Shown piece after piece: positions 10,249 through 63,000 of a stretch of DNA of 64,000 nucleotides. Made by a program: the position numbers and the translations under genes. Source of the DNA: an uncultured Methanotrichaceae archaeon (GTDB lineage: Archaea > Halobacteriota > Methanosarcinia > Methanotrichales > Methanotrichaceae); NCBI GenBank assembly GCA_964632755.1, contig CAZWDT010000002.1, positions 2,279 to 66,278 on the forward strand. The letters run 5' to 3'. Each line of letters starts with the position of its first letter. Within the stretch, counting starts at the first letter, position 1. The notes below the pieces were generated by a model. The model saw only the letters and a program-made list of their open reading frames with translations. It was not told where the DNA came from and did not search any database.

Positions 10249-10375
10249 TTGCCCCTCTGATCGAGGGTGACAGCTCAGGAATCGGCCAAGCCGATCTCCC
10301 AAGCCAATGGCCATCCCCGGCCCGTGGAGATCGCTCTCGATTGTCAAGGCGCCAGCCTTCTATCCCTCCGGGGCT

Positions 10376-11071: not shown

Positions 11072-11195
11072 GTTCCCTCCAAGTGCCTAATCTGTTCGCC
11101 ATAGCTACTTACGTCCAAATAAAATTCTCGGTCGAATGCTTGCACAAGGTTTATGTCCTTAAAGGGGAGGGGTTGGGACCAGCAGAGAATGAGGA

Positions 11196-14373: not shown

Positions 14374-14424
14374 GGCCCTTTTCCGAGGTCACGATTTTCG
14401 ACTTAGATCTGGAGGTAGGCAAGT

Positions 14425-44893: not shown

Positions 44894-45541
44894 TCAGGCG
44901 CTTTTAGAGGCCATCTCCTCGGCCCGACTCATATCCGCGAGATGCCTGTTCAGCACCTTTGCGATCGTGTTCAGCTTGGAGCGGTTGCATGTGGCCCCGC
45001 GTGTAACGCCTGTTACTATATCCACAACCTCTCCCTTTGTAACCGTGTTCGGCCTTGTGGGCTTGACGAGCCTGGTCTTTACGCCCTCCCTTGCGAAGTC
45101 CTCGAAGTCAACGGGACACTGAGCGACCACTACCGCCGGGATGTCCACGAGCGCCAGTACCTCCCTCGTCTTGAAGATGACGTGGGACTTCACGTTCCCC
45201 AGGTGGATGACGGCGATCTTGTGCCTTGCAATCTGCGCCACCTCCTTCTCGGTGAGCCCAAAGGTGGGGCCGTATCCGCGGCCGGCCGCCTGCGGGAAGC
45301 TCTCCGGAACGCCCGCCCCCGAGTTCAGGACAAGGACGCTCGTCTGGATGCCCTCCCTTCTCAGGCCATATGTGATCTCGCAGACGGGCTTTGTGATATG
45401 CCTCCTTCCCGGGGACATGGCGATCGCAATCACATCCGGCCTCGCAGCCTCTGATAGCGTTCCCCGCTGGGCAAGGCCTCCTCCCTTTGCAAGGCCCATG
45501 CTCTCCCGGCAGTCCACAACCTGCGTAGCTCTTCCGATCAT
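44894..45541 (-). CDS. mcrC: methyl-coenzyme M reductase operon protein C homologue
   Basis: 215 aa. MIGRATQVVDCRESMGLAKGGGLAQRGT...AMSPGRRHITKPVCEITYGLRREGI...PVDFEDFAREGVKT matches my memory of McrC. No mcrA/B/G genes are in the window. Confidence 0.65.
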   Translation of the reverse strand: MIGRATQVVDCRESMGLAKGGGLAQRGTLSEAARPDVIAIAMSPGRRHITKPVCEITYGLRREGIQTSVLVLNSGAGVPESFPQAAGRGYGPTFGLTEKEVAQIARHKIAVIHLGNVKSHVIFKTREVLALVDIPAVVVAQCPVDFEDFAREGVKTRLVKPTRPNTVTKGEVVDIVTGVTRGATCNRSKLNTIAKVLNRHLADMSRAEEMASKSA

Positions 45542-47814: not shown

Positions 47815-49062
47815 TTAGCCGCGAGGGGCAGTCCACCTCGCTTTGATGCTCCTTGCGGCGAGCATCGAGGTTGAGAATGCGGCCTGGAGATTGTAGCCGC
47901 CGGAGTCCCCGTCCACGTCGAGGACCTCGCCTGCCAGGTACAGCCCTTCAACGATCCGGGACTCCATGGTCTTTGGGTTGACCTCCCTTCGATCCACTCC
48001 GCCCCTTGTGACCATTGCCTCGTCATATCCTCCAAGCCTCTCAACCACCAGGGGGAGCCCGGTCAGGTTCTCGACGAGGGCGCGGCGCATCTCTTTCGTC
48101 AGCTGGGCGGATTTGAGGTCGTTAGGGATTCCCGAGATATCGAGAATCCTTGAGATGAATCTCGAGGGCAAGGAGAGGTCTGCGAGGAGGATCCTTGCGG
48201 CGCGGTCCCCGTCGACTTGCGCCCTCTCCATGAGCAAGTTCTCCAGGCTCCCTCGTCCCAGGGCAGGAAGGAAGGAAAGCTTCAGCGTATCTCCGGGCCT
48301 TATATGCCTCGAGAGGTCGAGGATCCCTGGGCCAGAGAGGCCCCCATGGGTGAAGAGAACGTCGCCCGATCGCTCCATCTTCTTCTTTTCCCTGAATAGC
48401 GCAATCGAGATATCCTGAAAGGATATCCCGGCCAGATCCGAGAAGGGATGATCCCTTATGTAGACCGGGGCCAAAGCGGGACCGGTATCGACAATGCTAT
48501 GGCCGAGAACCTTCGAGAGCCTGAATCCGTCGCCGGTCGAGCCTGTCGCAGGATACGATCTGCCGCCCGTTGAGATGACCAGAAGGGCCGATGAATAGAG
48601 GCGGTCCTGGGTGAGAACCTGAAAACCATTCCCTGACCGGGCAATCGACCTCACCTCCTGGTCGCACCTGAGAATAATCCCTTTAGCCCTGCAGAGGCCG
48701 AGGAGGAGGTCGAGCACGTCCCTCGACCTCAGCGTCCCGGGAAAGACCTTCCCTTCATCCGTCCGGATCATGGAGAGGCCGAGGCCCTCGAATGTGGAGA
48801 TGAGGTCACAATTGGTGAAGCCCAGCAGTGCTGGGCGGAGGAACCTTCCGGCATCGCCATAGCGATCGAGAAAGGCCCGGATCTCTCCATCGTGGCTTAT
48901 GTTGCAACGGCCCGAGCCCGAAATCAGGAGCTTTCTTCCAGGTGACCCCATCTTATCGAGGAGGAGGATCCTCTTGCCCTCGATCGAGGAGTTGATCGCA
49001 CAGAAGAGCCCTGCGGGACCTCCGCCCACTATTATGAGATCGAACTCCTCAGGGTCTTCCAT
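47815..49062 (-). CDS. HI0933/BaiN-family NAD(FAD)-utilising flavoprotein
   Basis: 415 aa. It has the Rossmann motif DLIIVGGGPAGLFCA and the C-terminal LYLAGEVLDVDGDSGGYNLQAAFSTS. Confidence 0.85.
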   Translation of the reverse strand: MEDPEEFDLIIVGGGPAGLFCAINSSIEGKRILLLDKMGSPGRKLLISGSGRCNISHDGEIRAFLDRYGDAGRFLRPALLGFTNCDLISTFEGLGLSMIRTDEGKVFPGTLRSRDVLDLLLGLCRAKGIILRCDQEVRSIARSGNGFQVLTQDRLYSSALLVISTGGRSYPATGSTGDGFRLSKVLGHSIVDTGPALAPVYIRDHPFSDLAGISFQDISIALFREKKKMERSGDVLFTHGGLSGPGILDLSRHIRPGDTLKLSFLPALGRGSLENLLMERAQVDGDRAARILLADLSLPSRFISRILDISGIPNDLKSAQLTKEMRRALVENLTGLPLVVERLGGYDEAMVTRGGVDRREVNPKTMESRIVEGLYLAGEVLDVDGDSGGYNLQAAFSTSMLAARSIKARWTAPRG

Positions 49063-49096: not shown

Positions 49097-49375
49097 CTAA
49101 TCCTCTATCAGCCCCGGCCCGTTGAAGACCTTCTTCGCCTCTTCGAGGCTCATGTCGGACGGTGGCACTATCACCTGGGACTCGACTATCTCCTCTGCGG
49201 GAAGCGCCGTTCCCTTCTGCTTGATGGTCTCGATGAGCCGGTCGAGGTCCTGGCGAAACTCCCGCTCAGCCCCGGCGGATACGTGCTCGACTATGCGGTT
49301 GTCGATTCGATTGAGCTCGTCAATGAGGGAGTCGGGCACGCGGTACTGCCCCTCTCCCATGATCCTGATGATCAT
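49097..49375 (-). CDS. PspA-associated small protein (PspAA-like)
   Basis: 92 aa (MIIRIMGEGQYRVPDSLIDELNRIDN...). It overlaps the pspA stop by 4 nt. Its size and position match the described PspA-PspAA dyad. Confidence 0.6.
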   Translation of the reverse strand: MIIRIMGEGQYRVPDSLIDELNRIDNRIVEHVSAGAEREFRQDLDRLIETIKQKGTALPAEEIVESQVIVPPSDMSLEEAKKVFNGPGLIED

Positions 49376-50070
49376 CTCCCGGCCTCCCTCTTCAGCCGGA
49401 CAAGCTCGTCTTCGACGCCAGACGAGGCCTTCATCCGGTTGAGCTCTCTATCGATGTCGTCGCCGCTTCCTGTAACGTCCTCAAGGCTTCCCTGCTCGAG
49501 CAGCTCGTCAAGCGCAGCAGAGCGCGCCTTCATGCCCTCCGTCTTCTCCTCAGCCCTCTGGACCGCCATCCCAACGTCGGCCATCTCCTCGCTGATCCCC
49601 GTCACCGACTCCGTCACCTTGACCTGGGCCTCGGCTGCCGAGTACTGGGCCTTGATGGTCTCCTTCTTGGTGCGGAAGACCTCTATCTTGGTTGTGAGCC
49701 TCTGCTCGGTGGCCGCGAGCTTATCCTGCTCCTTTTGGAGATCCTGGATCTGCAGCTCAAGCGACTCAACTTGGGCTCCAAGGGCGACCTTCCTCTCCAA
49801 GGCAACGCGAGCCAGGTCGTCCCGGCCAGCCTTCACGGCGTCGCCTGCTTGAGCTCCCAGCTTGTCCATGCTCTGCATCAGCTTGGCCTTCTGAAGCTCG
49901 AGCCTCTTCTTGGAGGTCGTAACCTCGGCAAGACCCCTTCTCACGTTCTGCAAAAGTTCCAGCTGCTTCTCATAGGAATAGTCCAGGGTCTCCCTGGGGT
50001 CCTCCACCTTATTTATGATCTTGTTCATCTTGGCTTTGACAACCGTGCCCATTCTATCCAACAAACCCAT
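49372..50070 (-). CDS. pspA: PspA/IM30 (ESCRT-III-like) family protein
   Basis: 232 aa. MGLLDRMGTVVKAKMNKIINKVEDPRETLDYSYEKQLELLQNVRRGLAEV is followed by long coiled-coil sequence. Confidence 0.85.
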   Translation of the reverse strand: MGLLDRMGTVVKAKMNKIINKVEDPRETLDYSYEKQLELLQNVRRGLAEVTTSKKRLELQKAKLMQSMDKLGAQAGDAVKAGRDDLARVALERKVALGAQVESLELQIQDLQKEQDKLAATEQRLTTKIEVFRTKKETIKAQYSAAEAQVKVTESVTGISEEMADVGMAVQRAEEKTEGMKARSAALDELLEQGSLEDVTGSGDDIDRELNRMKASSGVEDELVRLKREAGR

Positions 50071-50334
50071 TATATCAACTCCCCAAAGGCCCGGCTATGA
50101 TGACCGGCCCGTGATCATGTCTCAGAGTCAGTCTGGCTCCAAGTCTATTTATATCCTGCCGGTCTCCTCATCCTCTCCATAGAGCGCTTCTCCTCCCGGG
50201 TGGGTCATCTGTCCGGGCTGCAAGAGGATCTTCGATAGATGGTCTGGGCTATTGAGGAAATGGGGGGGCAGGTCCGGAGAGCGTTCGTCCTGCATTCTGC
50301 CAGGATTGGCATGCCCTGCTTTTAAAAAGGGGTC

Positions 50335-50730
50335 TCACATGCGACTGCGCACTGCAGGCAGAGCGGCTCGCTCTCGCTCCATCTCCCGCCGGCATCGGGG
50401 GCATATCTCCACCCAGGAGACCCCTTCTGAGTCCCTCTGCATCTCTTCGGGGACGACCTCGACGATTCGCTTCAGCATCGGCCTGGTTGCGAATGGCGTA
50501 TGGCAGACTTGGCAGGGGATCAGCTCGAAGGATATCTGAAAATCCTCCCCCTCCGGGCTGATGGATAGGGCCTTTCCAGGACAGAACTCGACGCACAGGT
50601 CACAGAACTCCTCGCATCGAGAGAAATGTATCACCCTTTGCTCTCCGTCCTCGAGGGTAATCTTTCCCGAGGGACAGACGTTGGAGCAAGCCGAACAACC
50701 CAGACACCTGCTGGAATCCATGGATATCAT
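50335..50730 (-). CDS. 4Fe-4S ferredoxin-domain protein with an extra Cys-rich C-terminal half
   Basis: 131 aa. CLGCSACSNVCP and CDLCVEFCP form the ferredoxin domain, and CQVCH...CPRC forms the Cys-rich tail. It overlaps the upstream gene by 4 nt. Confidence 0.8.
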   Translation of the reverse strand: MISMDSSRCLGCSACSNVCPSGKITLEDGEQRVIHFSRCEEFCDLCVEFCPGKALSISPEGEDFQISFELIPCQVCHTPFATRPMLKRIVEVVPEEMQRDSEGVSWVEICPRCRREMERERAALPAVRSRM

Positions 50731-51170
50731 CTCGTCTTCCTCCTCTCAATGATCGAGGCTTGGGCCGCCTTGTACCTTGCCCTGCGGTGAACGACATCAT
50801 AGTCAACGGATAGGGCTTGTGCAGGACAGGTGGCAACACAGGTTGGAAGCTCGGATGGATAGCAGAGGTCGCACTTATGGGCAAGCTTATCGGACCAGAT
50901 CACGCCAAAGGGGCAGGCAAGTGTGCAGATGCCACAGCCCGTGCATTTGGCAGCATCGAAGGATACTCGATCCCCGTCGGTCGTAAGGGCCCCCGAGTAG
51001 CAGGCCTTGGCACATGTGGCATCCTTGCAATGGTGGCAGAGAAGCGGCACGGCTGCGCGCCCATCGGCGAAAAGAACTGCGATATGAGGCTCTCCGTTGT
51101 GTTCCCTCTTGCAAGCGACCTCGCAGGCCTTGCACCCTATGCACCTCAATACATCGACGTATACCGGCAT
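50727..51170 (-). CDS. poly-[4Fe-4S] ferredoxin-like electron-transfer subunit (HycB/FdhB-small-like)
   Basis: 147 aa. Cluster motifs are CIGCKACEVAC, CHHCKDATCAKAC, CTGCGICTLACP and CDLC....CVATCP. Its ATG abuts the fdhA-like stop. Confidence 0.85.
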   Translation of the reverse strand: MPVYVDVLRCIGCKACEVACKREHNGEPHIAVLFADGRAAVPLLCHHCKDATCAKACYSGALTTDGDRVSFDAAKCTGCGICTLACPFGVIWSDKLAHKCDLCYPSELPTCVATCPAQALSVDYDVVHRRARYKAAQASIIERRKTR

Positions 51171-53207
51171 CTAATCCCTCCGGGCGAGATTGCAGGCGGC
51201 CACCTTGAACTCAGGGATCCCGGCAACCTCGTCCCTTGCACCGCTAGTGAGGATGTTCGCTCCCGGAAAGTGAAACGGCATGAAAATAACGCTAGAGGGA
51301 ACCCTCTCTGTGATCCGGGCCAAGGCTTCCGTCGTTCCCCTGGCGGTGGATACGACGACCATATCGCCTTTTATGATGCCAAGCCTTAGGGCATCCTTGG
51401 GGTTGATCTCGGCGAAGGCCTCCGGCTCTCGCTCCGCGAGGGAGGGGCTTCTCCTGGTCATCGATCCGGCGTTATGATGGACGGCGATCCTTCCGGTCGT
51501 AAGCGTGAAAGGGAACTCGCCGGAAGGCCCTTCGGCCGGAGGCCGGAAGGATACGGGCAGGATCCGGCCCCTTCCGTCCTTCGTCTTGAAGGCCTCGGTA
51601 TAAAGGATGGGAGTTCCTGGGTGATCTTGGCTCGGGCAGGGCCAGATTATGCTCGTAGCATTGAGCCGGGATCTAGTGACCCCCCCATAGGCGGGAACGG
51701 TTCTGTTGATCTCGGAGAGGACCTCCTCGGCCCCGGCGTAATCGAAGTTCAATCCCATGCGATTTGCCACCTGACAGACTATCCAGAGATCCGAACGGGC
51801 CTCGCCTGGAGGGCGAACCGCCCGATTGGTCCATTGGATCCGTCTCTCGGTGGAGGTGAAAGTCCCCTCCTTCTCCGCCCAGCAAGCAGCGGGGAGGACT
51901 AGATCGGCCAGCTGGGCAGTAGACGTCATGAAGATATCCTGGACGACCAGGAAATCGAGCGAGGAGAGCACCTCCTTGACATGGTGGCTGTTGGACTCCG
52001 AGTTCACCGGGTCCTCCCCCACGATATACATCGCTTTGATCCTTCCGTCTTTTGCTCCATCGATCATCTCGGGGGCGGTCAGGCCTCGGCCAAGGGGAAG
52101 GGATTGCGCATCCCAGGCCATGGAGAAGGCCCCCACGGTTGCCGGATCGTCGGCTGGGCGGTACCCTGGATAGAACTCGGCAAGCGCGCCCATATCGCAT
52201 GCCCCCTGAACGTTGTTCTGGCCACGGAGAGGAAGCACGCCAGTCCCTTCCCTCCCTATCTGGCCGCAGATTAGGGCCAGGTTGGCCAAAGCTTGGACGT
52301 TATCCGTCCCCGTTGTATGCTGAGTTATCCCCATGGAGTAGACGATCGATGAGGCCGGGGATAGGGCATAGGCCTCTGCTGCCTGGAAGATCAGTTGAGC
52401 TGGAATGCCGCAGATCTCCTCCGCCCACTCCGTGGTGCAGCCCTTCAGCGCCTCCACAAGATCCGGGCAGCCTCTTGTACGAGTGGCTATGAACTTCTCA
52501 TCCATCCAGCCCTCGTCGATGATCAGCCTGGCCATGGCGTTTAGAAGGGCAACGTCAGTCCCTGGCCGGATCTGGAGGAATATATCCGCGAGCCAGGCGG
52601 TCGGTGTGTAGCGGGGATCGGCTACGATCACGACCGCCCCCGCATCCTTTGCCCGATGGATCCATTGTGTGATCACGGGGTGGTTCTCGGCGAGGTTTGA
52701 GCCTATTATGAAGATACATCTGGAGTTGGCTAGATCAGGGATTGGATTGGTCATCCCAGCGGCGCCCAGGGAGCGATTCAGCCCCACAACGGACGGCGCA
52801 TGGCAGAGGCGTGCACAATTGTCGACGTTCTTCGATCCCAGGGAACGGGCCAGCTTTTGGATGAGGTAGTTCTCCTCATTCGTGCACTTCGACGATGCTA
52901 GGAACCCCAGGGATGGAGGTCCCCCCCCCTTCAAGGCCTTGGCTAACTGCCGGGCGACTACGTCGAGAGCCTCCTCCCAGCTGATGCGAGCCCATATATC
53001 GCCCACCTTCTTCATGGGGCAAGTGAGACGATCTTTATTGTTGATCACCTCAAGGGAGGCGTTGCCTTTGGGACAGAGGGCGCCTTGGCTCACCGGATGT
53101 TGGGGATTGTACTCGATTCCCATGGCGAGGCCCCTCTCAGTCGTGATCTGCAGTTCACATCCTACGGCACAGTAAGGACAGACGGTGGATACGGTCGATC
53201 TGGGCAT
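51171..53207 (-). CDS. fdhA: molybdo/tungstopterin oxidoreductase, formate dehydrogenase catalytic (alpha) subunit type, Cys variant
   Basis: 678 aa. It has the N-terminal Fe-S motif CPYCAVGCEL....CPKG. The active-site stretch NCARLCHAPSVVGLNRSLGAAGMTN aligns with the FDH (U/C)H.PSV.GL motif and has Cys, not an in-frame TGA. Confidence 0.8.
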   Translation of the reverse strand: MPRSTVSTVCPYCAVGCELQITTERGLAMGIEYNPQHPVSQGALCPKGNASLEVINNKDRLTCPMKKVGDIWARISWEEALDVVARQLAKALKGGGPPSLGFLASSKCTNEENYLIQKLARSLGSKNVDNCARLCHAPSVVGLNRSLGAAGMTNPIPDLANSRCIFIIGSNLAENHPVITQWIHRAKDAGAVVIVADPRYTPTAWLADIFLQIRPGTDVALLNAMARLIIDEGWMDEKFIATRTRGCPDLVEALKGCTTEWAEEICGIPAQLIFQAAEAYALSPASSIVYSMGITQHTTGTDNVQALANLALICGQIGREGTGVLPLRGQNNVQGACDMGALAEFYPGYRPADDPATVGAFSMAWDAQSLPLGRGLTAPEMIDGAKDGRIKAMYIVGEDPVNSESNSHHVKEVLSSLDFLVVQDIFMTSTAQLADLVLPAACWAEKEGTFTSTERRIQWTNRAVRPPGEARSDLWIVCQVANRMGLNFDYAGAEEVLSEINRTVPAYGGVTRSRLNATSIIWPCPSQDHPGTPILYTEAFKTKDGRGRILPVSFRPPAEGPSGEFPFTLTTGRIAVHHNAGSMTRRSPSLAEREPEAFAEINPKDALRLGIIKGDMVVVSTARGTTEALARITERVPSSVIFMPFHFPGANILTSGARDEVAGIPEFKVAACNLARRD

Positions 53208-53275
53208 ATTTATCCTGTTCCAATCAGTCCCTCATGATCTGCAATATCCTCGATCGAGTCGGCCGGACAATAGTC

Positions 53276-54094
53276 CTAGTAGGCATAGATCTTTCCATAA
53301 GGCCTCTTGGAGATCGGGGATATCTTGATCATATTCCCCTCTGAGATCTCCTCCTTGCACATCCCAATCTCCGGGAACCGGTCCAGGAACTCTCCCACGT
53401 ATCGGTCCAGTATGGCTCGATCCTCCTCGTCGAGGGGCGAGATCTCCACCTCCTGGCCCAACTGGCTGGGCATAAGATCGCCCCTGAGGTAGATGACGCC
53501 GCCGTGCATCCCAGTCCCTATGTAGTTCGCGAGGTGCGGCTTGCCTCCAAGGCCTAGCAGTATCACTATACCTCCTGCCATGTACTCGCCCAGGAAGTCT
53601 TGGGAAGTGCCTCCGATCACCAACACCGGCTTCTTGTCCATGTATTCCTTCATGTGGAGGGCCGTCCTGTATCCCACGTCTTCCTTGACGAAGATCTTGC
53701 CTCCCCGCATGGACATTCCGAGCACGTCCCCGGCCCTGCCTTGCACGGTTATCTCGCCATCGTCCATGGTGTTTCCCACGCCGTCTTGGACGTTGCCATG
53801 GACCATTATGCGATGGCCGCTTAGGAAGGCCCCCAGGTCATTGCCTGGAGTGCCCACGATCTCGATATCCAGCGGTATCATTAGGCCAAAGAGCCTGGTT
53901 CCGATGTACCTCTGGCCACATATATTCTTCAGCAGGAAGTGGCGCGTCCCATTCAGCATGCAGTTGCGGAGCAGGTTGTTGAGCTCCTTGCTGGGCATGC
54001 CGGTTGCATCTATCTCCACCTCGCCTACCCTCCAGCTCTTTACCGCATTGAGGGCCGGTCCGGCCGTCCCGCAATCTATCAACTGTGCTTCCAT
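53276..54094 (-). CDS. glutamate synthase GXGXG (domain 3) subunit, archaeal split type
   Basis: 272 aa. G..GNDLGAF..G..I.V.G...DGVGN.M..G.I.V.G.AGD..G..M.GG.I.V is the beta-helix repeat pattern. The gene lies next to the domain 1 and domain 2 genes. Confidence 0.75.
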   Translation of the reverse strand: MEAQLIDCGTAGPALNAVKSWRVGEVEIDATGMPSKELNNLLRNCMLNGTRHFLLKNICGQRYIGTRLFGLMIPLDIEIVGTPGNDLGAFLSGHRIMVHGNVQDGVGNTMDDGEITVQGRAGDVLGMSMRGGKIFVKEDVGYRTALHMKEYMDKKPVLVIGGTSQDFLGEYMAGGIVILLGLGGKPHLANYIGTGMHGGVIYLRGDLMPSQLGQEVEISPLDEEDRAILDRYVGEFLDRFPEIGMCKEEISEGNMIKISPISKRPYGKIYAY

Positions 54095-54113
54095 GATTAC
54101 AGACCTCCTGTTC

Positions 54114-55625
54114 TTATTCGCCTGCTCCTTTCACCCCGAGGACATCGAGCTCCCACTCGTAGAGCCCCACGCCTCGAAGGTGATCTCGGTTTCCTCGAAG
54201 GCTCTCAATGGCGTTGATGCCCATGCCGCCCAACATCTCCTTGATCTCATGAGACCAAGCTGTGAGCAGATTGACCAGACGCTGAGAGGCGATTCTGGTG
54301 TCTAACCTCCCTGCCAGGCGGGGATCTTGGGTGCATATTCCCCAGTTGCACTTGCCTGTGTAGCACTTCTGGCAGAGCGTGCATCCCATGGCTATCAGGG
54401 CTGCAGTTCCTATGTAGACGGCATCTGCCCCGAGGGCGATGGCCTTGATCACGTCGGAGCTGCATCGGATGCCACCGCCGGCTATGATCGTACAGCGACT
54501 CCTCACCCCTTCCTCCCTTAGCCTTCTGTCCACTGCGGAGAGGGCAAGTTCGATGGGGATGCCAACGTTGTCCCGGATCGCCTTGGGTGCGGCCCCTGTG
54601 CCTCCCCTCATCCCGTCAATGGCCACTATGTCCGCACCCGCTCGGACTATTCCCGAGGCAATGGCTGCGATGTTGTGCACCGCTGCCACCTTGACCGATA
54701 TGGGCAACTCGTAGTTCGTGGCTTCTTTGAGGGCGTAGATGAGCATGGAGAGGTCCTCTATGGAGTAGATGTCGTGATGGGGGGCTGGTGAGATGGCGTC
54801 CGTCCCCTCGGGGATCATCCTCGTTGCAGCAACCTTTGAAGAGACCTTCTCCGCTGGGAGATGGCCGCCTATCCCCGGCTTGGCTCCTTGTCCAACTTTT
54901 ATCTCGATCGCTCTCGCACAGTTCAGGTACTCTGCATCGATGCCGAAGCGGCCCGATGCCACCTGCACCGTAGCATAGCGTCCAAACTCCGCTCGCATGT
55001 CTCGAGGCAGGCCCCCCTCTCCCGTGTTGAAGAGGGTGCCGAACTCGCGGGCGGCCATCGCCAGGGAGTTGAAGGCCTGGTAGCTTATGGCCCCATAGGA
55101 CATGGCGGAGAAGAGAATGGGCGCTTCTATGGTGATGTTCGGGCCAAGCTCAGTGCTAATCTCGCCGCAATCGTCTATCTCGAGCAGGTCCGGCTTTCTG
55201 CCAAGGAACGTCCGGAGCTCCATAGGCTCTCGAAGTGGATCAATGGACGGGTTTGTGACCTGGGATGCGTTCAGGACGATGTTGTCCCAGTAGATGCGAA
55301 GTGGCTTGTCGCTGCCGCAACCTGATAGGAGGACGCCTCCGGTCTCCGCCTGCTTCTTGAGGTCGTCTATCTTCTCCCTAGTCCAGGCCTCGTTGGGCCG
55401 ATAGTAGGGGGGGGTGGGGCGGACCACAAGGGCATTTTTGGGGCAGAATATAGCGCACCTCTGGCAGCCGGAGCACAACTTCTCGTTGGTTACCATCCGA
55501 TCTGCAACCGGATCGTAGATGTGGGTTCCAAAGGCGCACTGCCGTTCGCAGCCGCGACATTGGTTGCAGGCCGACTCATCGCGGAATATCTGGAATTCAG
55601 GAAATAGGTAGGACCTCATTGGCAT
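54114..55625 (-). CDS. glutamate synthase FMN-binding (domain 2) subunit with an N-terminal 2x[4Fe-4S] ferredoxin domain
   Basis: 503 aa. CNQCRGCERQC and CSGCQRCAIFCP form the ferredoxin domain. The TIM-barrel motifs are IEIKVGQGAKPGIGGHLP, DIYSIEDL, DIVAIDGMRGGTGAAP and IIAGGGIR. Confidence 0.88.
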   Translation of the reverse strand: MPMRSYLFPEFQIFRDESACNQCRGCERQCAFGTHIYDPVADRMVTNEKLCSGCQRCAIFCPKNALVVRPTPPYYRPNEAWTREKIDDLKKQAETGGVLLSGCGSDKPLRIYWDNIVLNASQVTNPSIDPLREPMELRTFLGRKPDLLEIDDCGEISTELGPNITIEAPILFSAMSYGAISYQAFNSLAMAAREFGTLFNTGEGGLPRDMRAEFGRYATVQVASGRFGIDAEYLNCARAIEIKVGQGAKPGIGGHLPAEKVSSKVAATRMIPEGTDAISPAPHHDIYSIEDLSMLIYALKEATNYELPISVKVAAVHNIAAIASGIVRAGADIVAIDGMRGGTGAAPKAIRDNVGIPIELALSAVDRRLREEGVRSRCTIIAGGGIRCSSDVIKAIALGADAVYIGTAALIAMGCTLCQKCYTGKCNWGICTQDPRLAGRLDTRIASQRLVNLLTAWSHEIKEMLGGMGINAIESLRGNRDHLRGVGLYEWELDVLGVKGAGE

Positions 55626-56746
55626 CCCCTCTCCGAGAGCTCGCCGACAACCGGCTCTCCGCCATTGGGGGTCCAGACCCGGTCGAGGTCCGGCGATATC
55701 AATCGGATGGAGGCCTCCTCTGAGGAGAGATAGAGCATCTCCCCCTTTGTGGCCGCGGTCAGTGGCCGCAGCCTTATCCTGTCGGTGAGGCCTATCATCT
55801 CCCTCTGATTGGCTATGATTATCGTGAATGGACCGTTTAAGAGGAGCGGGGCATATACCATTCTAAGCGCAGTCAAGAGCTTTCGAGCCTTTTCGTCCAT
55901 CCGGTCGATGGATTTCCATACCGGCGGGGAGAGCACCTTGGATACTAGCTCTATTGGCAGCCTCTGCCTTCTCATCAGCAGGTCAACGGCGTAGGTGATA
56001 ACCTCCGTATCGGTGAATAGCGTGCATTTGTAGCCGTACATCTCCAGATAGCGGCGGTTAGTTCCATACGAGGAGATCTCCCCGTTATGGACCACGGTCC
56101 AGTCGAGGAGGCCGAAGGGATGGGCTCCACCCCACCAGGCCTGGCTATTTGTAGGAAAACGACCATGCGCGGTCCAGATGTGGCCCCGATAGAGCCGGTC
56201 CAACATGAAATACTCCGATATCTCCTCGGGAAAGCCCACGCCCTTGAAGATGCCCATGTTCTTGCCGGAGGAGAAGACGCAAGCGTTCTCGATCTGGGTG
56301 TTCACCCACATGGACTTGGCAACGACGTAATCGTCGTCGGAAAGCCTGGCCTCGTCCCCCTTCTTGTTGGGGGCAACGAAATATCTCCATAACAATGGAG
56401 GGTCCATCACCCTTACTTCATCGTCATGGGGGATCTCCTCATCGTAGACCAGGTCGAAGTTGGCGCATAGGAAGGCCTCGAACTCGTCCTTGGCCTCTCT
56501 CTTGACCTGCCTGTTACCTCCGGTGAACATCATATGCAGGGCGTAATACTCCTGGTATTGAGGGTAAATCCCATACGCAGCGAATCCTCCGCCCAGTCCG
56601 TTGCCGCGAACGTGCATATTGGCTATGGCTCTGGTAACACCCTCGCCGGTGAACCTTTCTCCATCCCGGTTCATCGCACCGAAGATGGAGCAGGAGCTTA
56701 TCTCCTTCTCGTGGATCTCTCTTCTCACTCTTCTCTCCGTCATCAT
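55616..56746 (-). CDS. glutamate synthase glutamine amidotransferase (class II, domain 1) subunit
   Basis: ...SSCSIFGAMNRDGE...HVRGNGLGGGFAAYG...GHIWTAHGRFPTNS...VVHNGEISSYG are Ntn-amidotransferase motifs. The catalytic Cys is preceded by a short propeptide. The start is uncertain (ATGATG at 56746 or ATG at 56803). The track start at 56863 lies inside the promoter block. Confidence 0.8.
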   Translation of the reverse strand: MMTERRVRREIHEKEISSCSIFGAMNRDGERFTGEGVTRAIANMHVRGNGLGGGFAAYGIYPQYQEYYALHMMFTGGNRQVKREAKDEFEAFLCANFDLVYDEEIPHDDEVRVMDPPLLWRYFVAPNKKGDEARLSDDDYVVAKSMWVNTQIENACVFSSGKNMGIFKGVGFPEEISEYFMLDRLYRGHIWTAHGRFPTNSQAWWGGAHPFGLLDWTVVHNGEISSYGTNRRYLEMYGYKCTLFTDTEVITYAVDLLMRRQRLPIELVSKVLSPPVWKSIDRMDEKARKLLTALRMVYAPLLLNGPFTIIIANQREMIGLTDRIRLRPLTAATKGEMLYLSSEEASIRLISPDLDRVWTPNGGEPVVGELSERGCQ

Positions 56747-56837: not shown

Positions 56838-56873
56838 TTTATATGTGTTTGAGAGATTTTCACAAAACTTATG
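56838..56873 (-). promoter_or_regulatory. conserved promoter/operator block upstream of gltB1 (shared with glnA)
   Basis: The minus strand reads cataagttttgtgaaaatctctcaaacacatataaa. It is identical at 28 of 36 ungapped positions to the block at 58366..58401. It contains the near-palindrome TCATAAsTTTTGTGA and a TATA-like end. Confidence 0.55.
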
Positions 56874-56899: not shown

Positions 56900-56919
56900 G
56901 CCGGGGCTCTAACCCCGGC
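56900..56919 (-). terminator. GC-rich hairpin between glnA and the gltB1 promoter
   Basis: gccgggg-ctctaa-ccccggc has a 7-bp stem and lies about 70 nt after the glnA stop. No strong T-tract follows it. Confidence 0.3.
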
Positions 56920-56989: not shown

Positions 56990-58324
56990 CTAAAGCAGGG
57001 GAAGATACCTCTCCAGCTCCCATTGGGTCACGTTCATTCGGTATGCGTCCCATTCCTTTCTCTTGTTGGCGAGGAAGGCATGAAATACATGCTCTCCCAG
57101 CGCTTCCCTCACGAGCTTGCTCTTCTCCGTGAGATCGATTGCCTCGTTCAGGCTTCCTGGAAGGGATGAGATCCCGGCGCTTGTCCTCTCGGCATCGGTC
57201 ATGTGGTAGACATCTTTCTCCTGGGGATCGGGTATGTCGTACCGGTTGTTGATCCCGGCAAGGCCAGCTGCCAGCATTACCGAGAAGGCCAGGTACGGGT
57301 TGGCGGCTGGATCGGCGCTTCTGTACTCCACCCTGGTCGCGGTCTCTTTGCCTGGTTTATACATGGGAACCCTCACCAATGTGGACCGGTTCCTTCGAGC
57401 CCAGCAGATGTAGACAGGGGCCTCGTAGCCGGGAACAAGCCTCTTGTAGGAGTTGATCCACTGGTTGGTAACCGCGGTTATCTCAGGGGCGTGCTTTAAG
57501 AGGCCGCCGATGTAGTTCCTGGCCTCCTCGGACAAGTGGTACTTGTCTCCCGGATCGAAGAAGGCGTTCCTCTTGCCCTTGAAGAGCGATTGATGAACGT
57601 GCATCCCCGATCCATTCTGACCGAAGATCGGCTTTGGCATGAACGAAGCATGATAGCCATAGCGACTCGCCACTTCCTTCACAACGATCTTGTAGGTCAT
57701 GCAGGTGTCGGCCATGTTGAGGGCGTCCTTATACCTGAGATCGATCTCGTGCTGGGATGGGGCTACCTCGTGATGGCTGTACTCGACATCTATTCCCATG
57801 GAGTCCAGGGTGAGGATGGTGTCCCGACGCAGATCGCTTGCAGCATCCATGGTGGTAAGGTCAAAGTAGCCGCCATGGTCCAGTATCTCCGTGGTGTGCT
57901 CGTTCTTGAAGTAGAAGAACTCGAGCTCAGGACCTACGTTGAACGTATATCCCTTATCCTTGAGCCTCTCCAGGTTCCTCTTGAGAACATATCTGGGATC
58001 GGCCTCATAGGGGGTGCCATCGGGATTGAGGATATCGCAGAACATCCTCGCGACAGCGTTCTCCTTCTGCCGCCAGGGCAGTATCTGGAAGGTCGTAGGA
58101 TCGGGGACGGCGACCATGTCGCTCTCGTTGATCCGAGCGAAGCCTTCGATGGAGGATCCGTCGAAGCCCATTCCCTCTTCGAAAGCCCCTTCGAGCTCTG
58201 AGGTGTTTATCGCGAAGCTCTTTGGCGTTCCTAGTATGTCCGTGAACCATATCCTCACGAACCTCACGTTATTCTTCTCCACTGCGGCGAAGAGTTCGTC
58301 CTTGGTCCTTATGTTTTCGGCCAT
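56990..58324 (-). CDS. glnA: glutamine synthetase, type I
   Basis: 444 aa. Diagnostic motifs are FDGSSIEGF, GPELEFF, HHEVAPSQHEIDLRY, KPIFGQNGSGMHVHQSL and NPYLAF. Confidence 0.92.
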   Translation of the reverse strand: MAENIRTKDELFAAVEKNNVRFVRIWFTDILGTPKSFAINTSELEGAFEEGMGFDGSSIEGFARINESDMVAVPDPTTFQILPWRQKENAVARMFCDILNPDGTPYEADPRYVLKRNLERLKDKGYTFNVGPELEFFYFKNEHTTEILDHGGYFDLTTMDAASDLRRDTILTLDSMGIDVEYSHHEVAPSQHEIDLRYKDALNMADTCMTYKIVVKEVASRYGYHASFMPKPIFGQNGSGMHVHQSLFKGKRNAFFDPGDKYHLSEEARNYIGGLLKHAPEITAVTNQWINSYKRLVPGYEAPVYICWARRNRSTLVRVPMYKPGKETATRVEYRSADPAANPYLAFSVMLAAGLAGINNRYDIPDPQEKDVYHMTDAERTSAGISSLPGSLNEAIDLTEKSKLVREALGEHVFHAFLANKRKEWDAYRMNVTQWELERYLPLL

Positions 58325-58365: not shown

Positions 58366-58401
58366 TATATATCTATTTGAGATCGATTCACAAAAGTTAT
58401 G
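58366..58401 (-). promoter_or_regulatory. conserved promoter/operator block upstream of glnA (shared with gltB1)
   Basis: The minus strand reads cataacttttgtgaatcgatctcaaatagatatata, about 40 nt upstream of the glnA ATG. Confidence 0.55.
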
Positions 58402-59858: not shown

Positions 59859-60086
59859 TGTTCTATAACTACGGTACATACGATATATTCTATCCATACG
59901 AAAAGTACTTGTAATCCTTGGGCGAAGGGATATAAACTGGAGCCTAGCTCTTGATTGCAGGATCACAGCGCAAGATCGGCCGGATAGCCGAGTAGGGCGC
60001 TATTGTTATATCATACACCGAGAGAGAAGGGAATACAAGGCGGATTGATGGGCAATATATTAAGATTATGAGAGGTGGAGGAGATC

Positions 60087-63000
60087 ATGCATCATCATAA
60101 GGTGGGCGGAATCTGCTTGCTTTTGGCGACTTTGGCAGCAGCTCTGCAGATTGGGGGGTTGGCATATACCCCTAGCGATGAAGCCACCAAGGATTTCTTC
60201 GGCGATCCTTCGAGCGGCGAGGCCGACCAGGCCTTCAGCATCGCCGAGGACGACTTCTTCGATAACAGCGGCTATAGCGAGACAACGGAGAGCTCCAGCG
60301 CGATAGATGCTCCCAAGGCAGATACACCAGTGGTGGAATCGAACTCTACAGAGGCCGGGGATAAGGCTTCTGATGTTGTATCCACTGCAGAGGCAGATAT
60401 CCTCCCTGTGGCCGAGTCGGATGAGTCCCTGGAAGCTTCTCAGGAATCGAATGCCACAAGCATCGCAGAAGGGGACGAATCGGCCAAGAGCGCTTCCGGG
60501 CAGGCGGATGCTTCCATCAATGCTGAGGTTTCCACACTCACCTTGAACGAGAGCGATCAGGGCAATGCCTCCTCCGCAGAAGCGATCATGGTGACATCTG
60601 CTAACGCCACGGACAATACCACGGCGAACGCAGGATCCAATGAGACTGCTATCAATGAGACTGTCATCAACGAGACCGCTATAAACGCAACTTTGGCCAA
60701 TGTCTCAGCCGAGAACATCACGTCGACTAATGCAACTCTGCCGATAAATGCGAGCGAGAACTTGACGTCCGAATCCGAAGTCAACGCCACGCTTCTGGAG
60801 AACGCAACCGAGGAGAACCAGACTGCAATCGAGCCCGTGGCGGCATCGGCCTCTGCAGATGAGACCGCAGTCGATGAGGAGATCGATTTCTTCGACTTCG
60901 ATACATATCCGACGGATAGGATCTGGCGGGACGGGGTAAATGATATCCCCTATACATGGACGCCCATCTCCTTCTCCGGATTCTTCTACGACTTGGACGA
61001 TAACGTCGGAACCGAGATGATGACGATCGATCTCGACAAGTCCGGGCAGAACTACAGCCGCTCTGTCGACTCAGGGGCATTGATCTACAACAGCCGGATC
61101 CAGCAGATCAAGTACGCCTTCGAGGACTGGGGCAAGTACGAGGTACTGGGCTTCATGGCGGAGAAGTACTTCGCCGGCTACAAGGATAACGATGTCGTCG
61201 ACGGCGACGTCTCCATGATCAACGACAACCAGCTGCGGCGCGTCCTCATCGACGAGGATGAGGATAGGACGATCTCCACAGGTTCCGTCCTTGCCCTGGA
61301 GGAGGGCTATGAGCTGAGGATCAAGGAGATCGACCTGGATGGCAACAAGGTCTGGCTGGCGGTTGCCAGGGACGGAGACGAGGTGGCGGACAAGGTAATA
61401 ACTCCCATATCCGACAACTTGAGGACATCCACATTCACATACGACGTGGACATCAGCGGAAAGGACGCTCCATTGATCATGGCCCACGTGAGAAATGTCT
61501 TCTCCGGGGCTGAGACGAGCCTTGTGACGCTCGACGGCCTCTTCCAGATCTCAGACACATACGACTCGGTGGAGGAGGCGGACAAGTACGGCGAGATGGA
61601 GGTCGTGTCCGTCTCGGACAAGGGGATCGAGATGGAGAACGAGGACTCCTTCACCCTCAGGAAGGGAAAGACGGTCAACATCATGGGCAATGTGGGTTTC
61701 CTCGTAGCAGACTCAGATACATTGAGGTTTGCCCCCGTAGTTGAGCGAAAGGGAAGCTACGAGGTCAGGGGAACGATTGTGGATAGCGATGTCCTCAAGG
61801 ACTACGACAACGAGTTCACCTGGGACGTCTTTAACTTCGAGGGATTCTACTACGACATAGACGATAACGTCGGCACCGAGACTCTTCGCGCCAAGGTCTC
61901 GGGAAGCAGCATAAAGGACGGCGATCTCTATTACGAGACCTCTCCGCAGTCCGTCGACTTCGAGCTATCGAGCTGGGGCAAGTACGACGTCATAGGATTC
62001 ATGGCCGACAAGTACTTCGCAGGCTACAACAACGGCACGACCTTCACCGACGAGTTCAGCATCATCAACGAGGGCCAGCTGCGAAAGGTTTTAATGGACA
62101 GCGACGATGAGAGGACGCTTACTTCCGGATCGGTCCTCCCCCTGGAGGAGGGCTACGAGGTTACCATCAAGGAGGTTGACCTCAACGGCAACAAGGTATG
62201 GCTCGCGGTGACCCAGGATGGCGAGGAGGTTGGCGACAAGGTGCTCAATCCCGTCGGCGGGGACCAGAAGAGCAAGACCTTCGTCTACGAGGATAAGATC
62301 GGTACGGAGGAGGTGCCGATCATCGCCGTGACGGTCGACAGCGTCTTCAGGGGGACAGAGGCCGACCTTGCCGTGATCAAGGGCATATTCCAGGTCTCCG
62401 ACATCCCTGAGGCTGTGGAGGAAGGGGATGTCCACGGCAAGATGAAGGTTGAGTCCTTATCCGACTCTGGAATCATAATGCAGAGCGACGGCTCCATTAG
62501 CCTGGGTCGGGGAAAGGAGATCACCATAATGGGCAACCTGAAGTTCGTGGTTGCCGACGACTCGGATCGTAGGTTCTGTCCCGTAGCCGTGAGGAAGGTC
62601 TCGGAGGAAGAGAGGCTTGCTCCCCTCAGGCTTGAGGCTCCTGAGACGATCATGGGCGCTAGCGTCTCTATCACCGTCACATCGGACGGCAAGGCCCTCG
62701 GCGGTGCTCTTGTAATCGTGGACGGAAGTGAGATTGGTACCACATCCTCGGATGGCACCTTGAGGTACACGCCGGACAAGGCTGGAACGCTCCAGGTTCA
62801 GGCAAAGTTAGAGGGATATCCCGATGGCAGCGGCAGCATGCTCGTCCGGTCCATGAAGGAGGTCAGGAGGCTCGCCTTGAACGTGCCTCCCGAGGCTCTC
62901 AAGGGGGAGACCTTCCTGATCACAGTAACCGGCGGCCTCAACCTATCTCCCATGGAGGATGTCGATGTCAGCTTCGATGATCTCTTCATAGGTTCGACAG

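Follow-up and report, generated by a model that had tools for sequence, protein, structure and literature searches.

Gene order and protein relationships in a Methanotrichaceae operon suggest formate as an electron source for glutamate synthesis

Why should methanogens of the family Methanotrichaceae, which live by consuming acetate, encode a formate dehydrogenase (FDH) next to their glutamate synthase (GOGAT), and could formate supply that synthase with electrons? The question is raised by six genes in a 64-kb stretch of DNA (the window) whose host belongs to this family (Methanothrix/Methanocrinis). All six open reading frames were confirmed on the minus strand, in the order gltB1 (55616-56746), gltB2 (54114-55625) and gltB3 (53276-54094), which encode a split archaeal GOGAT, then fdhA (51171-53207), encoding a Cys-type FDH catalytic subunit of 678 aa, and two Fe-S protein genes, fer1 (50727-51170) and fer2 (50335-50730). 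Their spacing is exactly that described in an earlier note on this DNA: gltB1 runs 10 nt into gltB2, gltB2 and gltB3 are 19 nt apart, the fdhA stop codon abuts the fer1 ATG in the same frame, and fer1 and fer2 overlap by 4 nt (ATGA). Each sub-module is tightly packed and translationally coupled; the 68-nt gltB3-fdhA spacer (53208..53275, minus strand), in which an AGGA ribosome-binding site stands 7 nt ahead of the fdhA start codon, is the loosest junction of the block and the only one that lacks coupling. The conserved operon suggests, from its sequence, that formate is an electron source for glutamate synthesis; we found no description of fdhA-GOGAT linkage in the literature.

GltB1 (376 aa from the first ATG, at 56746, with a possible GTG extension up to 56863) is a class-II (Ntn) glutamine amidotransferase subunit (PF00310, GATase_2, E = 6.9e-15) and is 70-77% identical across six Methanotrichaceae loci (locus L005 ends upstream of gltB2, where its block is cut off). 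GltB2 (503 aa) is the FMN/Fe-S synthase subunit (PF01645, Glu_synthase, 480 bits); its residues 164-494 align to residues 847-1179 of the GltS large chain (1ea0/2vdc), and it carries an N-terminal 2x[4Fe-4S] ferredoxin domain (Fer4_9 at residues 19-65). GltB3 (272 aa) is the GXGXG beta-helix subunit (PF01493, 103 bits), for which FwdC/FmdC chains are the only relatives by sequence in the PDB. Directly upstream of the block on the same strand is glnA (56990-58324, 444 aa), encoding a type I glutamine synthetase (TIGR00653, 561 bits, above the cutoff of 429); it has this position also in loci L001 and L164, and not in L162 and L163. The window encodes no FrhB, FdhB or GltD donor, and tblastn of its 64 kb gave no homologue of FdhB (E = 0.43) or GltD (E = 0.016), in agreement with the earlier note.

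The FdhA protein has the Molybdop_Fe4S4, Molybdopterin and Molydop_binding domains and scores 815 bits against the curated FDH-alpha model TIGR01591 (cutoff 666), falling far below the cutoffs of the NasC, NapA and FwdB models (97 bits for FwdB, cutoff 328). The FDH active-site stretch that the note had read in this protein, CARLCHAPSVVGL, is present and aligns with CARL-Sec-HSATVVGL of the Methanococcus maripaludis F420-dependent FDH (9t1s). Cys135-His136 and Arg328 are kept in 144/144 homologues, and the [4Fe-4S] cysteines (C10, C13, C17 and C45) and Lys47 are invariant. Among PDB chains FdhA matches 9t1s_L, 7qv7_S and 7bkb_D best, and, as a cytoplasmic enzyme, it has no Tat signal. Phylogenetically it groups with archaeal cytoplasmic FDHs; clade placement and model scores set it apart from FwdB/D and from Nas/Nap-type enzymes (nitrate reductases). 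FdhA thus looks catalytically competent and of FDH type.

Of the two Fe-S proteins, which the note had called ferredoxin-like or poly-ferredoxin subunits, the role of electron wire fits and the identity proves narrower. Fer1 (147 aa, 16 conserved Cys) is a four-cluster ferredoxin subunit of HycB/HydN type; its best PDB matches are HycB4 and HycB3 of the hydrogen-dependent CO2 reductase HDCR (7qv7), the Fe-S subunit of a tungsten aldehyde oxidoreductase (9mqx_E) and HycB of formate hydrogenlyase (FHL; 7z0s_B), and within NCBIfam it scores highest against the N-terminal domains of YgfT (88 bits) and AegA (86 bits). Fer2 (131 aa) is a 2x[4Fe-4S] subunit with 12 invariant Cys, including a conserved CxxC...CxxC pair in a C-terminal extension. 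The top structural match of its AF2 model (pLDDT 86) is E. coli FHL HycF (7z0t_F, TM 0.72/0.70, E = 1.9e-9), while the next best, NuoI, reaches a TM of only 0.36. Since Fer1 and Fer2 are specific homologues of HycB and HycF, the FdhA-Fer1-Fer2 trio corresponds to the formate-oxidising input arm of FHL without its hydrogenase, and it is homologous to that of HDCR as well. To our knowledge, HycB and HycF proteins are known solely as wires joining an FDH to a second catalytic module; such proteins fit a wire role here, and also fit a partner encoded elsewhere.

The six genes are probably co-transcribed from a promoter/operator common to glnA. As noted earlier, glnA and gltB1 share an upstream motif: TTTTGTGAA-N4-TCTCAAA plus a TATA box occurs at only two sites in the window (0.02 expected by chance), at 58366..58395 upstream of glnA (TTTTGTGAATCGATCTCAAATAGATATATA, a perfect core and TATA match) and at 56838..56867 upstream of gltB1 (TTTTGTGAAAATCTCTCAAACACATATAAA), both on the minus strand. 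L001 keeps the motif upstream of both genes. The six-gene block itself contains no match to it and no T-run. At the 3' end, a T5 run (50324..50328, minus strand; CCCCTTTTTAAAAG) begins 7 nt past the fer2 stop codon and may be the archaeal terminator that ends the operon; in L001 and L005, too, fer2 is followed by T-rich runs. A promoter between gltB3 and fdhA would speak against the earlier reading, and in the window the spacer holds neither the promoter motif nor a T-run terminator. The corresponding gap in relatives is ~12-14 nt (L005, L006 and L162), 44 nt (L163) or 72 nt (L001), and gaps of 12-14 nt leave no room for a promoter; a TATA-like ATATAAT within the L001 gap makes an internal promoter possible there.

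The six-gene block recurs in six more Methanotrichaceae loci (L001, L005, L006, L162, L163 and L164) and is found in both genera; L162 is from Ca. Methanocrinis natronophilus and L163 is of M. harundinacea type. Relative to the window, FdhA in these loci is 65-67% identical and Fer2 44-59%, and the flanks are unrelated. In a further locus, L165, the module is rearranged and sits beside nuoE/F/G-like genes, still ~7 kb from glnA-gltB1-3, with a FocA-like gene (formate/nitrite transporter family) adjoining fdhA. Neighbourhood conservation, which the earlier note had wanted checked across archaea, stands within the family and not beyond it: gltB was near fdhA at 0 of ~150 other FdhA loci, the sister clade included. 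In that clade the order is cooS-cooF-fdhA-fer1-fer2; the trio occurs without GOGAT in L004, L085-L087, L168 and L169, and more distant FdhAs are paired with FdhB. Because the trio adjoins cooS-cooF in the sister clade and nuoE/F/G-like genes in L165, it appears to be a portable module that is not dedicated to GOGAT. Hydrogenase genes were found within 10 kb neither in the window nor at any locus examined.

The reading we prefer, though we consider it evenly poised between right and wrong, is that the operon encodes a formate-driven GOGAT specific to Methanotrichaceae. The Mo/W-bis-PGD site of FdhA would oxidise formate, and electrons would pass from the FdhA [4Fe-4S] cluster through the four clusters of the HycB-like Fer1 and the two of the HycF-like Fer2 to the GltB2 ferredoxin domain, then to the 3Fe-4S/FMN site, where 2-iminoglutarate, formed from 2-oxoglutarate and ammonia released from glutamine, would be reduced; GltB1 would serve as glutaminase, GltB2 as synthase and GltB3 as beta-helix subunit. 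As electrons would enter GltB2 via Fer2, the FDH arm would replace the FrhB/FdhB-like F420 subunit or GltD of other GOGATs. A Fer2-GltB2 contact, whether physical or directly electronic, is putative, as are the direction in which electrons move and the role of formate as donor in the cell. The earlier reading, in which electrons from an FDH or another molybdopterin enzyme enter GOGAT via Fe-S proteins, withstands those of the note's refutations that lend themselves to computation (clade, internal promoter and neighbourhood, the last within the family) and is partly supported.

Several known systems resemble parts of this arrangement. E. coli FHL (FdhF-HycB-HycF-HycG-HycE-HycC-HycD; 7z0s/7z0t) has the same three-protein input arm, an FdhH-type FDH with HycB and HycF, and FdhA matches FdhH (1aa6) with 483 bits; the Fer2 likeness to HycF extends over its full length. 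However, genes for the hydrogenase (HycE/G) and membrane (HycC/D) parts are absent from the window and from within 10 kb of related loci, the arm here forms part of a GOGAT operon, and its active site has Cys rather than Sec. In HDCR of Thermoanaerobacter kivui and Acetobacterium woodii (FdhF-HycB3-HycB4-HydA2; 7qv7) an FdhF-type FDH (7qv7_S, 628 bits to FdhA) is wired to a second enzyme via two small HycB-like Fe-S proteins, with HycB4 as the top PDB match of Fer1, whereas the present module has a HycF-like protein in place of another HycB and there is no [FeFe] hydrogenase. Formylmethanofuran dehydrogenase (FwdABCDFG; 5t5i) likewise combines a GXGXG beta-helix, an FDH-like molybdopterin subunit and polyferredoxin wiring with a second catalytic subunit that is reached through an internal tunnel, and its FwdC is the closest solved relative of GltB3; but FdhA here is a full-length FDH, FwdA amidohydrolase is missing and GOGAT is the second catalytic unit. 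The closest solved relatives of FdhA, with a common active-site motif, are methanogen F420-dependent FdhAB enzymes (9t1s, 663 bits; 7bkb, 626 bits), yet FdhB is encoded neither here nor at any orthologous locus, and in a neighbour-joining tree the FdhB-linked methanogen FDHs (Methanomicrobiales and Methanobrevibacter) fall on a branch of their own. For methanogen GOGATs gene context has led to the proposal of an additional donor subunit that binds F420 and is related by homology to FrhB/FdhB (FGltS(I)/(II), MTH193-type "subunit 4"; PMC3448663, PMC3087415, PMC9012536). These putative enzymes also join GOGAT genes to a dedicated donor, there an F420H2 dehydrogenase; the donor module here is an FDH with HycB/HycF wires and no FrhB/FdhB, which points to formate, not F420H2, as the reductant. 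In E. coli AegA/YgfT, whose N-terminal domains are the best curated-family matches of Fer1, a HydN-like ferredoxin domain is fused to a GltD-like domain, and AegA is proposed to act in a formate- and FdhH-dependent manner (PMC8097209). AegA is thus a precedent for a HycB-type ferredoxin that passes FdhH electrons on to a GltS-family module, although that module is of beta-subunit (GltD) type and serves urate degradation, while the partner here is alpha-type GOGAT machinery without a GltD-like protein.

The portable trio evidently needs no GOGAT, and the main rival, which we judge rather unlikely, is that FdhA-Fer1-Fer2 is an independent ferredoxin-linked FDH/CO2 reductase, merely co-transcribed with or historically adjacent to GOGAT, which would itself use free reduced ferredoxin. 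CODH/ACS-reduced ferredoxin, for instance, could feed GltB2 directly. The uncoupled gltB3-fdhA junction, with its TATA-like element in L001, leaves room for this, and the formate-driven reading draws on gene neighbourhood within a single family. Fer2 is specifically HycF-like; HycF normally docks on NuoB/NuoD-like hydrogenase subunits, and we know of no GOGAT surface homologous to that docking site. An independent enzyme could be a formate-oxidising hydrogenlyase-like arm whose hydrogenase and membrane part are encoded elsewhere, and such a hydrogenase-linked role would explain the splitting of formate to H2 and CO2 that studies cited in PMC6687939 report for Methanothrix strains; "monomeric FdhA" genes in non-formate-utilising Methanothrix are explicitly termed unexplained in the same paper. 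It could also supply the formate that biosynthetic reactions consume (purine C2/C8, class III ribonucleotide reductase); non-formate-utilising methanogens are said to require FDH for biosynthetic formate (PMC3087415). Yet no examined locus has hydrogenase genes within 10 kb, a six-cluster, two-protein wire is not obviously needed just to reduce soluble ferredoxin, the fusion to the GOGAT operon is kept in both genera, with gaps (12-14 nt) too short for a promoter, and other Methanotrichaceae FdhA paralogues could fill such roles: FmdE/FdhD/Fwd-linked (L002, L003 and L163), FocA-linked (L057) and hdrABC-linked (PMC7382037).

If, instead, the ancestor of the Methanotrichaceae acquired a mobile FDH module 3' of gltB3 in a single insertion, and the adjacency was then passively inherited with no functional meaning, the restriction to one family, the transposase genes flanking the L001 block and the broken operon of the L165 lineage would be accounted for; we regard this as improbable, given that the block outlived divergence to ~65% FdhA identity amid reshuffled surroundings, its intergenic gaps were compacted, the L165 units stayed close after rearrangement, and no catalytic residue or cluster ligand has been lost. 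A formate-driven GOGAT accommodates the latter observations, together with the single promoter motif 5' and T-run 3' of the block, the di-cluster domain of GltB2 in a window that encodes no FrhB, FdhB or GltD donor, and the pairing of the same trio with another redox enzyme, CooS-CooF, in the sister clade. Very improbable, in our view, is that the FdhA-like subunit takes another small substrate or has a structural or electron-transfer role like NuoG of complex I, docking via the FwdC-like GltB3. FwdC is the scaffold of the FDH-like FwdBD, and FdhA homologues of ANME and Methanolobus have been flagged as having uncertain substrates (PMC9012536), but the model scores place FdhA with FDHs, its active-site and cluster residues are those of characterised FDHs, and the gene adjoining its L165 orthologue encodes a FocA-type transporter.

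An ORF check recovered all six of the minus-strand genes claimed in the earlier note. These are gltB1 (55616-56746, 376 aa from its first ATG, with a possible GTG extension to 56863), gltB2 (54114-55625, 503 aa), gltB3 (53276-54094, 272 aa), an fdhA-like gene (51171-53207, 678 aa) and two genes for Fe-S proteins, fer1 (50727-51170, 147 aa) and fer2 (50335-50730, 131 aa), with glnA (56990-58324) directly upstream of the block. Going down the block, the first two genes share 10 nt, spacers of 19 and 68 nt come next, the fdhA stop abuts the fer1 start, and the two Fe-S genes share 4 nt. Pfam and NCBIfam assign GltB1 to GATase_2 (class-II GATase, PF00310), GltB2 to the FMN-dependent Glu_synthase family (PF01645) with an N-terminal di-cluster ferredoxin domain (Fer4_9), and GltB3 to the GXGXG domain (PF01493), and the three proteins together carry the domain set of split archaeal glutamate synthase (GOGAT; GltB1/2/3). 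GltB2 aligns with residues 847-1179 of GltS alpha. The earlier note had described FdhB and GltD as absent, and no homologue of either was found in the 64-kb window: the best FdhB match has E = 0.43, and for the GltD beta subunit (Fer4_20 and Pyr_redox_2 domains) the best tblastn match covers 34 aa with E = 0.016. FdhB is also missing beside the orthologous loci, and the cluster contains no FrhB/FdhB-like F420H2-dehydrogenase subunit of the kind present in FGltS I/II.

The 678-aa FdhA scores 815.3 bits on TIGR01591, for which the curated cutoff is 666.25, and its architecture is complete (Fe4S4, Molybdopterin and Molydop_binding in Pfam/NCBIfam). Its N-terminal [4Fe-4S] Cys4 motif is matched by PF04879 at 60 bits, and C10, C13, C17 and C45, along with Lys47, are invariant among close relatives. 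The stretch CARLCHAPSVVGL aligns with CARL-Sec-HSATVVGL of 9t1s, which places Cys135-His136 opposite the Sec-His pair, and Arg328 is present. All 144 homologues aligned from the fetched loci have Cys or Sec followed by His, as well as the Arg of PLRGQNN. The closest solved relatives are 9t1s (the F420-dependent FDH of M. maripaludis), 7qv7 (FdhF of the hydrogen-dependent CO2 reductase, HDCR) and 7bkb (M. hungatei FdhA). Since the active-site and cluster residues are retained and a signal peptide is absent, FdhA is, judging from its sequence, a cytoplasmic and apparently competent formate dehydrogenase (FDH) of the Cys type.

FdhA has its best matches in Methanotrichaceae, namely in Methanothrix/Methanosaeta and Methanocrinis; the nearest is 91% identical, and there is a large set of relatives at 63-70% identity. 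In a neighbour-joining tree the GOGAT-linked FdhAs form one clade within an archaeal group that also contains a clade linked to cooS, one Thermococcus and one haloarchaeal sequence, and those enzymes of Methanomicrobiales and Methanobacteriales that are linked to FdhB. The placement of the protein among FDHs is thus borne out, and as it branches within the archaeal FDH group, it does not fall with FwdB/D. A reading of gltB3 plus fdhA as a remnant of formylmethanofuran dehydrogenase (FwdB/FwdC) was rejected for FdhA, given 97 bits on TIGR03129 against a cutoff of 328 and no FwdA partner; no amidohydrolase gene lies within the six-gene block. A nitrate reductase was considered because it would suit a nitrogen assimilation cluster. 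In the assimilatory nitrate reductases (NasC/NasA/NarB) the Cys ligand is not followed by the His seen in FDHs. This identity was rejected as well, since the Cys-His pair is present and the scores are under the Nas/Nap cutoffs (535 bits on the NasC model against 1100, and 336 on the NasA model against 1000); scores for NapA, FwdB and the remaining families tested are also far too low.

Fer1 has 16 conserved Cys, a number that would suffice to bind four [4Fe-4S] clusters. Among solved structures it is closest to HycB4 and HycB3 of HDCR, to 9mqx_E, which is the Fe-S subunit in a tungsten aldehyde oxidoreductase, and to HycB of hydrogenlyase; among curated families it best matches the ferredoxin domains at the N-termini of YgfT and AegA. 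The 12 invariant Cys of Fer2 make up two cluster motifs and a C-terminal CxxC...CxxC pair. Its AlphaFold model (pLDDT 86) matches HycF of E. coli formate hydrogenlyase (FHL) over the whole length (TM 0.72/0.70, E = 1.9e-9), the next structural match being NuoI at TM 0.36. From the matches of Fer1 to HycB and Fer2 to HycF, it follows that FdhA-Fer1-Fer2 is the counterpart of FdhF-HycB-HycF, the formate-oxidising electron-input arm of FHL. As in FHL and HDCR, an FDH occurs together with HycB-type and HycF/HycB-type Fe-S subunits; unlike in those systems, a hydrogenase catalytic subunit ([NiFe] HycE/G or [FeFe] HydA) is missing from the same cluster. When the genes of the window and of L001, L004, L162-L165, L168 and L169, related loci fetched for comparison, were listed, no gene for a hydrogenase or membrane subunit was found, either in the window itself or within 8-10 kb at the other loci.

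The same six-gene block, with unrelated flanks, is found at six loci whose FdhA is 65-67% identical to that of the window: L001, L005 (cut off at gltB2), L006 (a Methanothrix MAG chromosome), L162 (Ca. Methanocrinis natronophilus), L163 (the M. harundinacea cluster) and L164. A rearranged cluster, L165 (FdhA 69% identical), can also be attributed to Methanotrichaceae because its GltB proteins are 70-80% identical to those of the window. Linkage of the FDH and GOGAT genes is therefore steady across the family and can still be recognised in L165 despite its rearrangement; glnA directly precedes the block in three cases only, those of the window, L001 and L164. Conservation across archaea more broadly, which had been raised as a check, does not extend so far: gltB is absent at the FdhA loci examined outside the Methanotrichaceae set, and so the linkage is family-specific. 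At 56-62% FdhA identity, five loci (L004, L086, L087, L168 and L169) have cooS-cooF followed by fdhA-fer1(-fer2), and one at 56% (L085) has fdhA-fer1-fer2 by itself, all without gltB. Two loci at 59% (L002 and L003) have fmdE-fdhA-fdhD adjoining fwd genes, and about 135 loci below 51%, from bacteria and archaea, are without gltB, many of their FdhAs being paired with FdhB or other proteins. The fdhA-fer1-fer2 trio is a portable module, found beside differing redox partners.

In L165 (3790-20396) one side of the cluster carries a GltD/NfnB-like gene upstream, a gene for a FocA-type transporter and fdhA-fer1-fer2, followed by nuoE-, nuoF- and nuoG-like genes (with a NuoG/FDH-like product of 795 aa) and a PyrK/NfnA-like gene. 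The FDH-side genes are convergent with glnA-gltB1-gltB2-gltB3, whose end is about 7 kb away from fdhA, and the whole resembles a form of the FDH/GOGAT theme that is bifurcating or linked to NAD(P)H. The cooS-linked FdhAs (L004, 4214-12841; L086/L087, 7508-12970; L168, 5582-10483; L169, 621-11057) are the sister clade of the GOGAT-linked ones, and their arrangement suggests a CO dehydrogenase wired to FDH, perhaps for CO:formate interconversion, of which no description was found in the literature. L168 additionally carries mtrA/mtrH and mtd and thus comes from a methane-metabolising archaeon. In L163 a second FdhA paralogue (13018-14967) directly follows fer2, being 59% identical to the first and 73% identical to the fmdE-fdhA-fdhD type of L002/L003, which lies at 9393-12878 with ETF-like and fwd genes beside and downstream of it. 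Methanotrichaceae thus have no fewer than three or four different FdhA paralogues. In the long contig of L164 (7529-10489) fer1 is split into two frames, the C-terminus of fer2 is altered and fdhA is called short, at 598 aa; either a long-read assembly has left indel errors here or the FDH arm is decaying in this strain.

Operon signals were sought by motif search and direct reading of the sequence, archaeal signals being unlike bacterial ones. The motif TTTTGTGAA-N4-TCTCAAA-N4-TATA has exactly two copies in 64 kb (0.02 expected), upstream of glnA and of gltB1, and none inside the six-gene block in the window-wide search. L001, whose proteins are about 76-79% identical, carries it before the same two genes. 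The 68-nt gltB3-fdhA spacer is without a T-run and has AGGA 7 nt ahead of the ATG, whereas a T5 run begins 7 nt past the fer2 stop codon; T-rich runs likewise follow fer2 in L001 and L005. The corresponding gap in relatives is 12-14 nt (L005, L006 and L162), 44 nt (L163) or 72 nt (L001). Given the placement of the motif, the spacer without a T-run, the T-runs at the end of fer2 and the short gaps, the predicted co-transcription of the block is well supported at the sequence level; in the L001 species there may be an internal promoter, because its 72-nt gap contains a TATA-like ATATAAT. The shared element, TTTTRTGAA-N4-TCTYAAA-N4-TATAWA, is located on the minus strand at 58366-58395 (glnA) and 56838-56867 (gltB1), and at about 6330-6370 and 4790-4830 in L001. 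It includes a TGA-N7-TCA dyad and is probably a nitrogen-regulator binding site overlapping BRE/TATA. Between the glnA stop codon and the gltB1 motif there is a perfect 7-bp GC hairpin, GCCGGGG-TTAGAG-CCCCGGC (56900-56919, minus strand), with no T-run after it.

The earlier note had proposed that formate oxidation feeds electrons through the Fe-S proteins into GOGAT. On gene context within one family, we regard the chances as evenly balanced that the FDH arm serves as the electron-input module of GOGAT in Methanotrichaceae. Electrons would pass from formate to the Mo/W site of FdhA and its cluster, through the four clusters of Fer1 and two of Fer2 to the ferredoxin domain of GltB2, and then by way of the 3Fe-4S/FMN site to 2-iminoglutarate. 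Of this, the sequences show the architecture, homology and conservation, whereas a joint transcript, contact of the two sub-modules, the way the electrons flow and formate as their source are inferred. The formate/CO2 couple, with E0' of about -430 mV, is ample for glutamate synthesis even at micromolar formate. A stronger form of this proposal, in which GltB1-3, FdhA, Fer1 and Fer2 make up one physical megacomplex, a formate:glutamate synthase, is more doubtful. Here formate oxidation would be hard-wired to the FMN site through about ten Fe-S clusters, and the beta-helix of GltB3 would dock the FDH subunit as FwdC docks FwdBD. In formylmethanofuran dehydrogenase, FwdC scaffolds an FDH-like subunit, and by sequence the only PDB matches to GltB3 are FwdC/FmdC chains (E = 4e-10), with no significant similarity to the C-terminal domain of the GltS large subunits from bacteria or plants; we retain the resemblance to FwdC solely as a structural analogy.

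As tentative as the megacomplex is the alternative that the FDH is independent and simply co-transcribed, either supplying biosynthetic formate or acting as a hydrogenlyase arm with its partner encoded elsewhere. In methanogens not growing on formate, FDH is regarded as necessary for supplying biosynthetic formate (PMC3087415), and some Methanothrix strains convert formate to H2 and CO2 but do not use formate for methanogenesis (PMC6687939). For the GOGAT reading there is a precedent in E. coli AegA and YgfT, in which a HydN-like ferredoxin domain is joined to a GltD-like one and whose action depends on formate and FdhH (PMC8097209). The adjacency might also be inherited and functionally meaningless; with the same block kept amid unrelated flanks, we consider this unlikely. 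More improbable still is that the FdhA-like subunit acts on something other than formate or is purely structural, which has to be weighed against the full set of active-site residues. An electron-input role in GOGAT is the reading we prefer.

The component families are all known; what is new is their combination and its conservation. Full-text searching, in which plant Fd-GOGAT papers swamped one query, found no description of FdhA-GOGAT linkage. Split archaeal GOGAT is still described as ORFs only (PMC8097209), and the only donors proposed so far, from gene context alone, are F420-dependent, with electrons from F420H2 entering by an FrhB- or FdhB-like subunit (PMC3448663, PMC3087415, PMC9012536). 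Methanothrix genomes have 'monomeric FdhA' genes whose role is unexplained (PMC6687939), and another FdhA paralogue adjoins hdrABC (PMC7382037). Methanothrix/Methanosaeta, globally important acetoclastic methanogens, have FDH genes and formate splitting but cannot grow on formate, and an FDH-GOGAT operon under a glnA-like promoter joins this decades-old question to that of the GOGAT donor, in a form testable in the cultured strains M. harundinacea and M. soehngenii. If the coupling is real, it would be a new use of the FdhF-HycB-HycF arm, making it a portable input module for hydrogenase, CODH and GOGAT, and a new donor variant of glutamate synthase, a formate-driven class. Nitrogen assimilation in Methanothrix would then depend on formate from syntrophic partners and would spare acetate-derived reduced ferredoxin, which matters because the organism lives near the thermodynamic limit. 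The megacomplex, if it exists, would make a fourth class of glutamate synthase by electron donor and would provide the long-missing physiological role for FDH in obligately acetoclastic Methanothrix.

Among the matches listed for a contig search with the FdhA alignment were two Methanothrix loci and distant FDHs, the latter serving as negative controls and not as a count of Methanotrichaceae species. A metagenome search with a single FdhA mostly matched the conserved C-terminal motif and so returned distant FDHs; it also gave the sister loci of the cooS-linked group (L085-L087). A word-based Fer2 search gave 21 matches, of which P0123 (L165) and P0140 (L164), both inspected as loci, are from Methanotrichaceae. 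In M. jannaschii an orphan fdhA, MJ1353, is presumably close to the gltB genes MJ1350/1351. With M. maripaludis FdhA, rebuilt from the 9t1s alignment, as query, a Methanocaldococcus-type locus (L166) was found that has no gltB within 10 kb, and this lead is therefore unsupported. Its Sec-FdhA (9557-11581), called as two ORFs broken at UGA, is an orphan also without FdhB, flanked by a geranylgeranyl-reductase-like gene on one side and a nitroreductase-like gene on the other. FdhAs near glnA-like genes in L117, L119 and L127 were set aside as unrelated bacterial NuoF-FdsA-NuoE enzymes of the NAD type. In these loci and L145, from an estuarine metagenome, NuoF-like, 894-aa FdsA-type alpha and NuoE-like genes are immediately followed by one for glutamine synthetase (231-6137 in L119), an adjacency probably unrelated to the GOGAT-linked FDH.

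Four other genes in the window have no obvious tie to the operon: those for a PspA/IM30 homologue directly downstream of it (49372-50070), which has a separate TATA box, an HI0933-like flavoprotein (47815-49062), a short McrC-like protein with a weak PF04609 match (44894-45541) and a 1140-aa S-layer protein (60075-63497). Between 31676 and 41637 there are four large ORFs without a Pfam match at E <= 1e-5, two on the minus strand (602 and 422 aa) and two on the plus strand (771 and 1075 aa). The G+C content at 32-36 kb is about 0.50-0.51, compared with 0.55-0.60 for the rest of the window.
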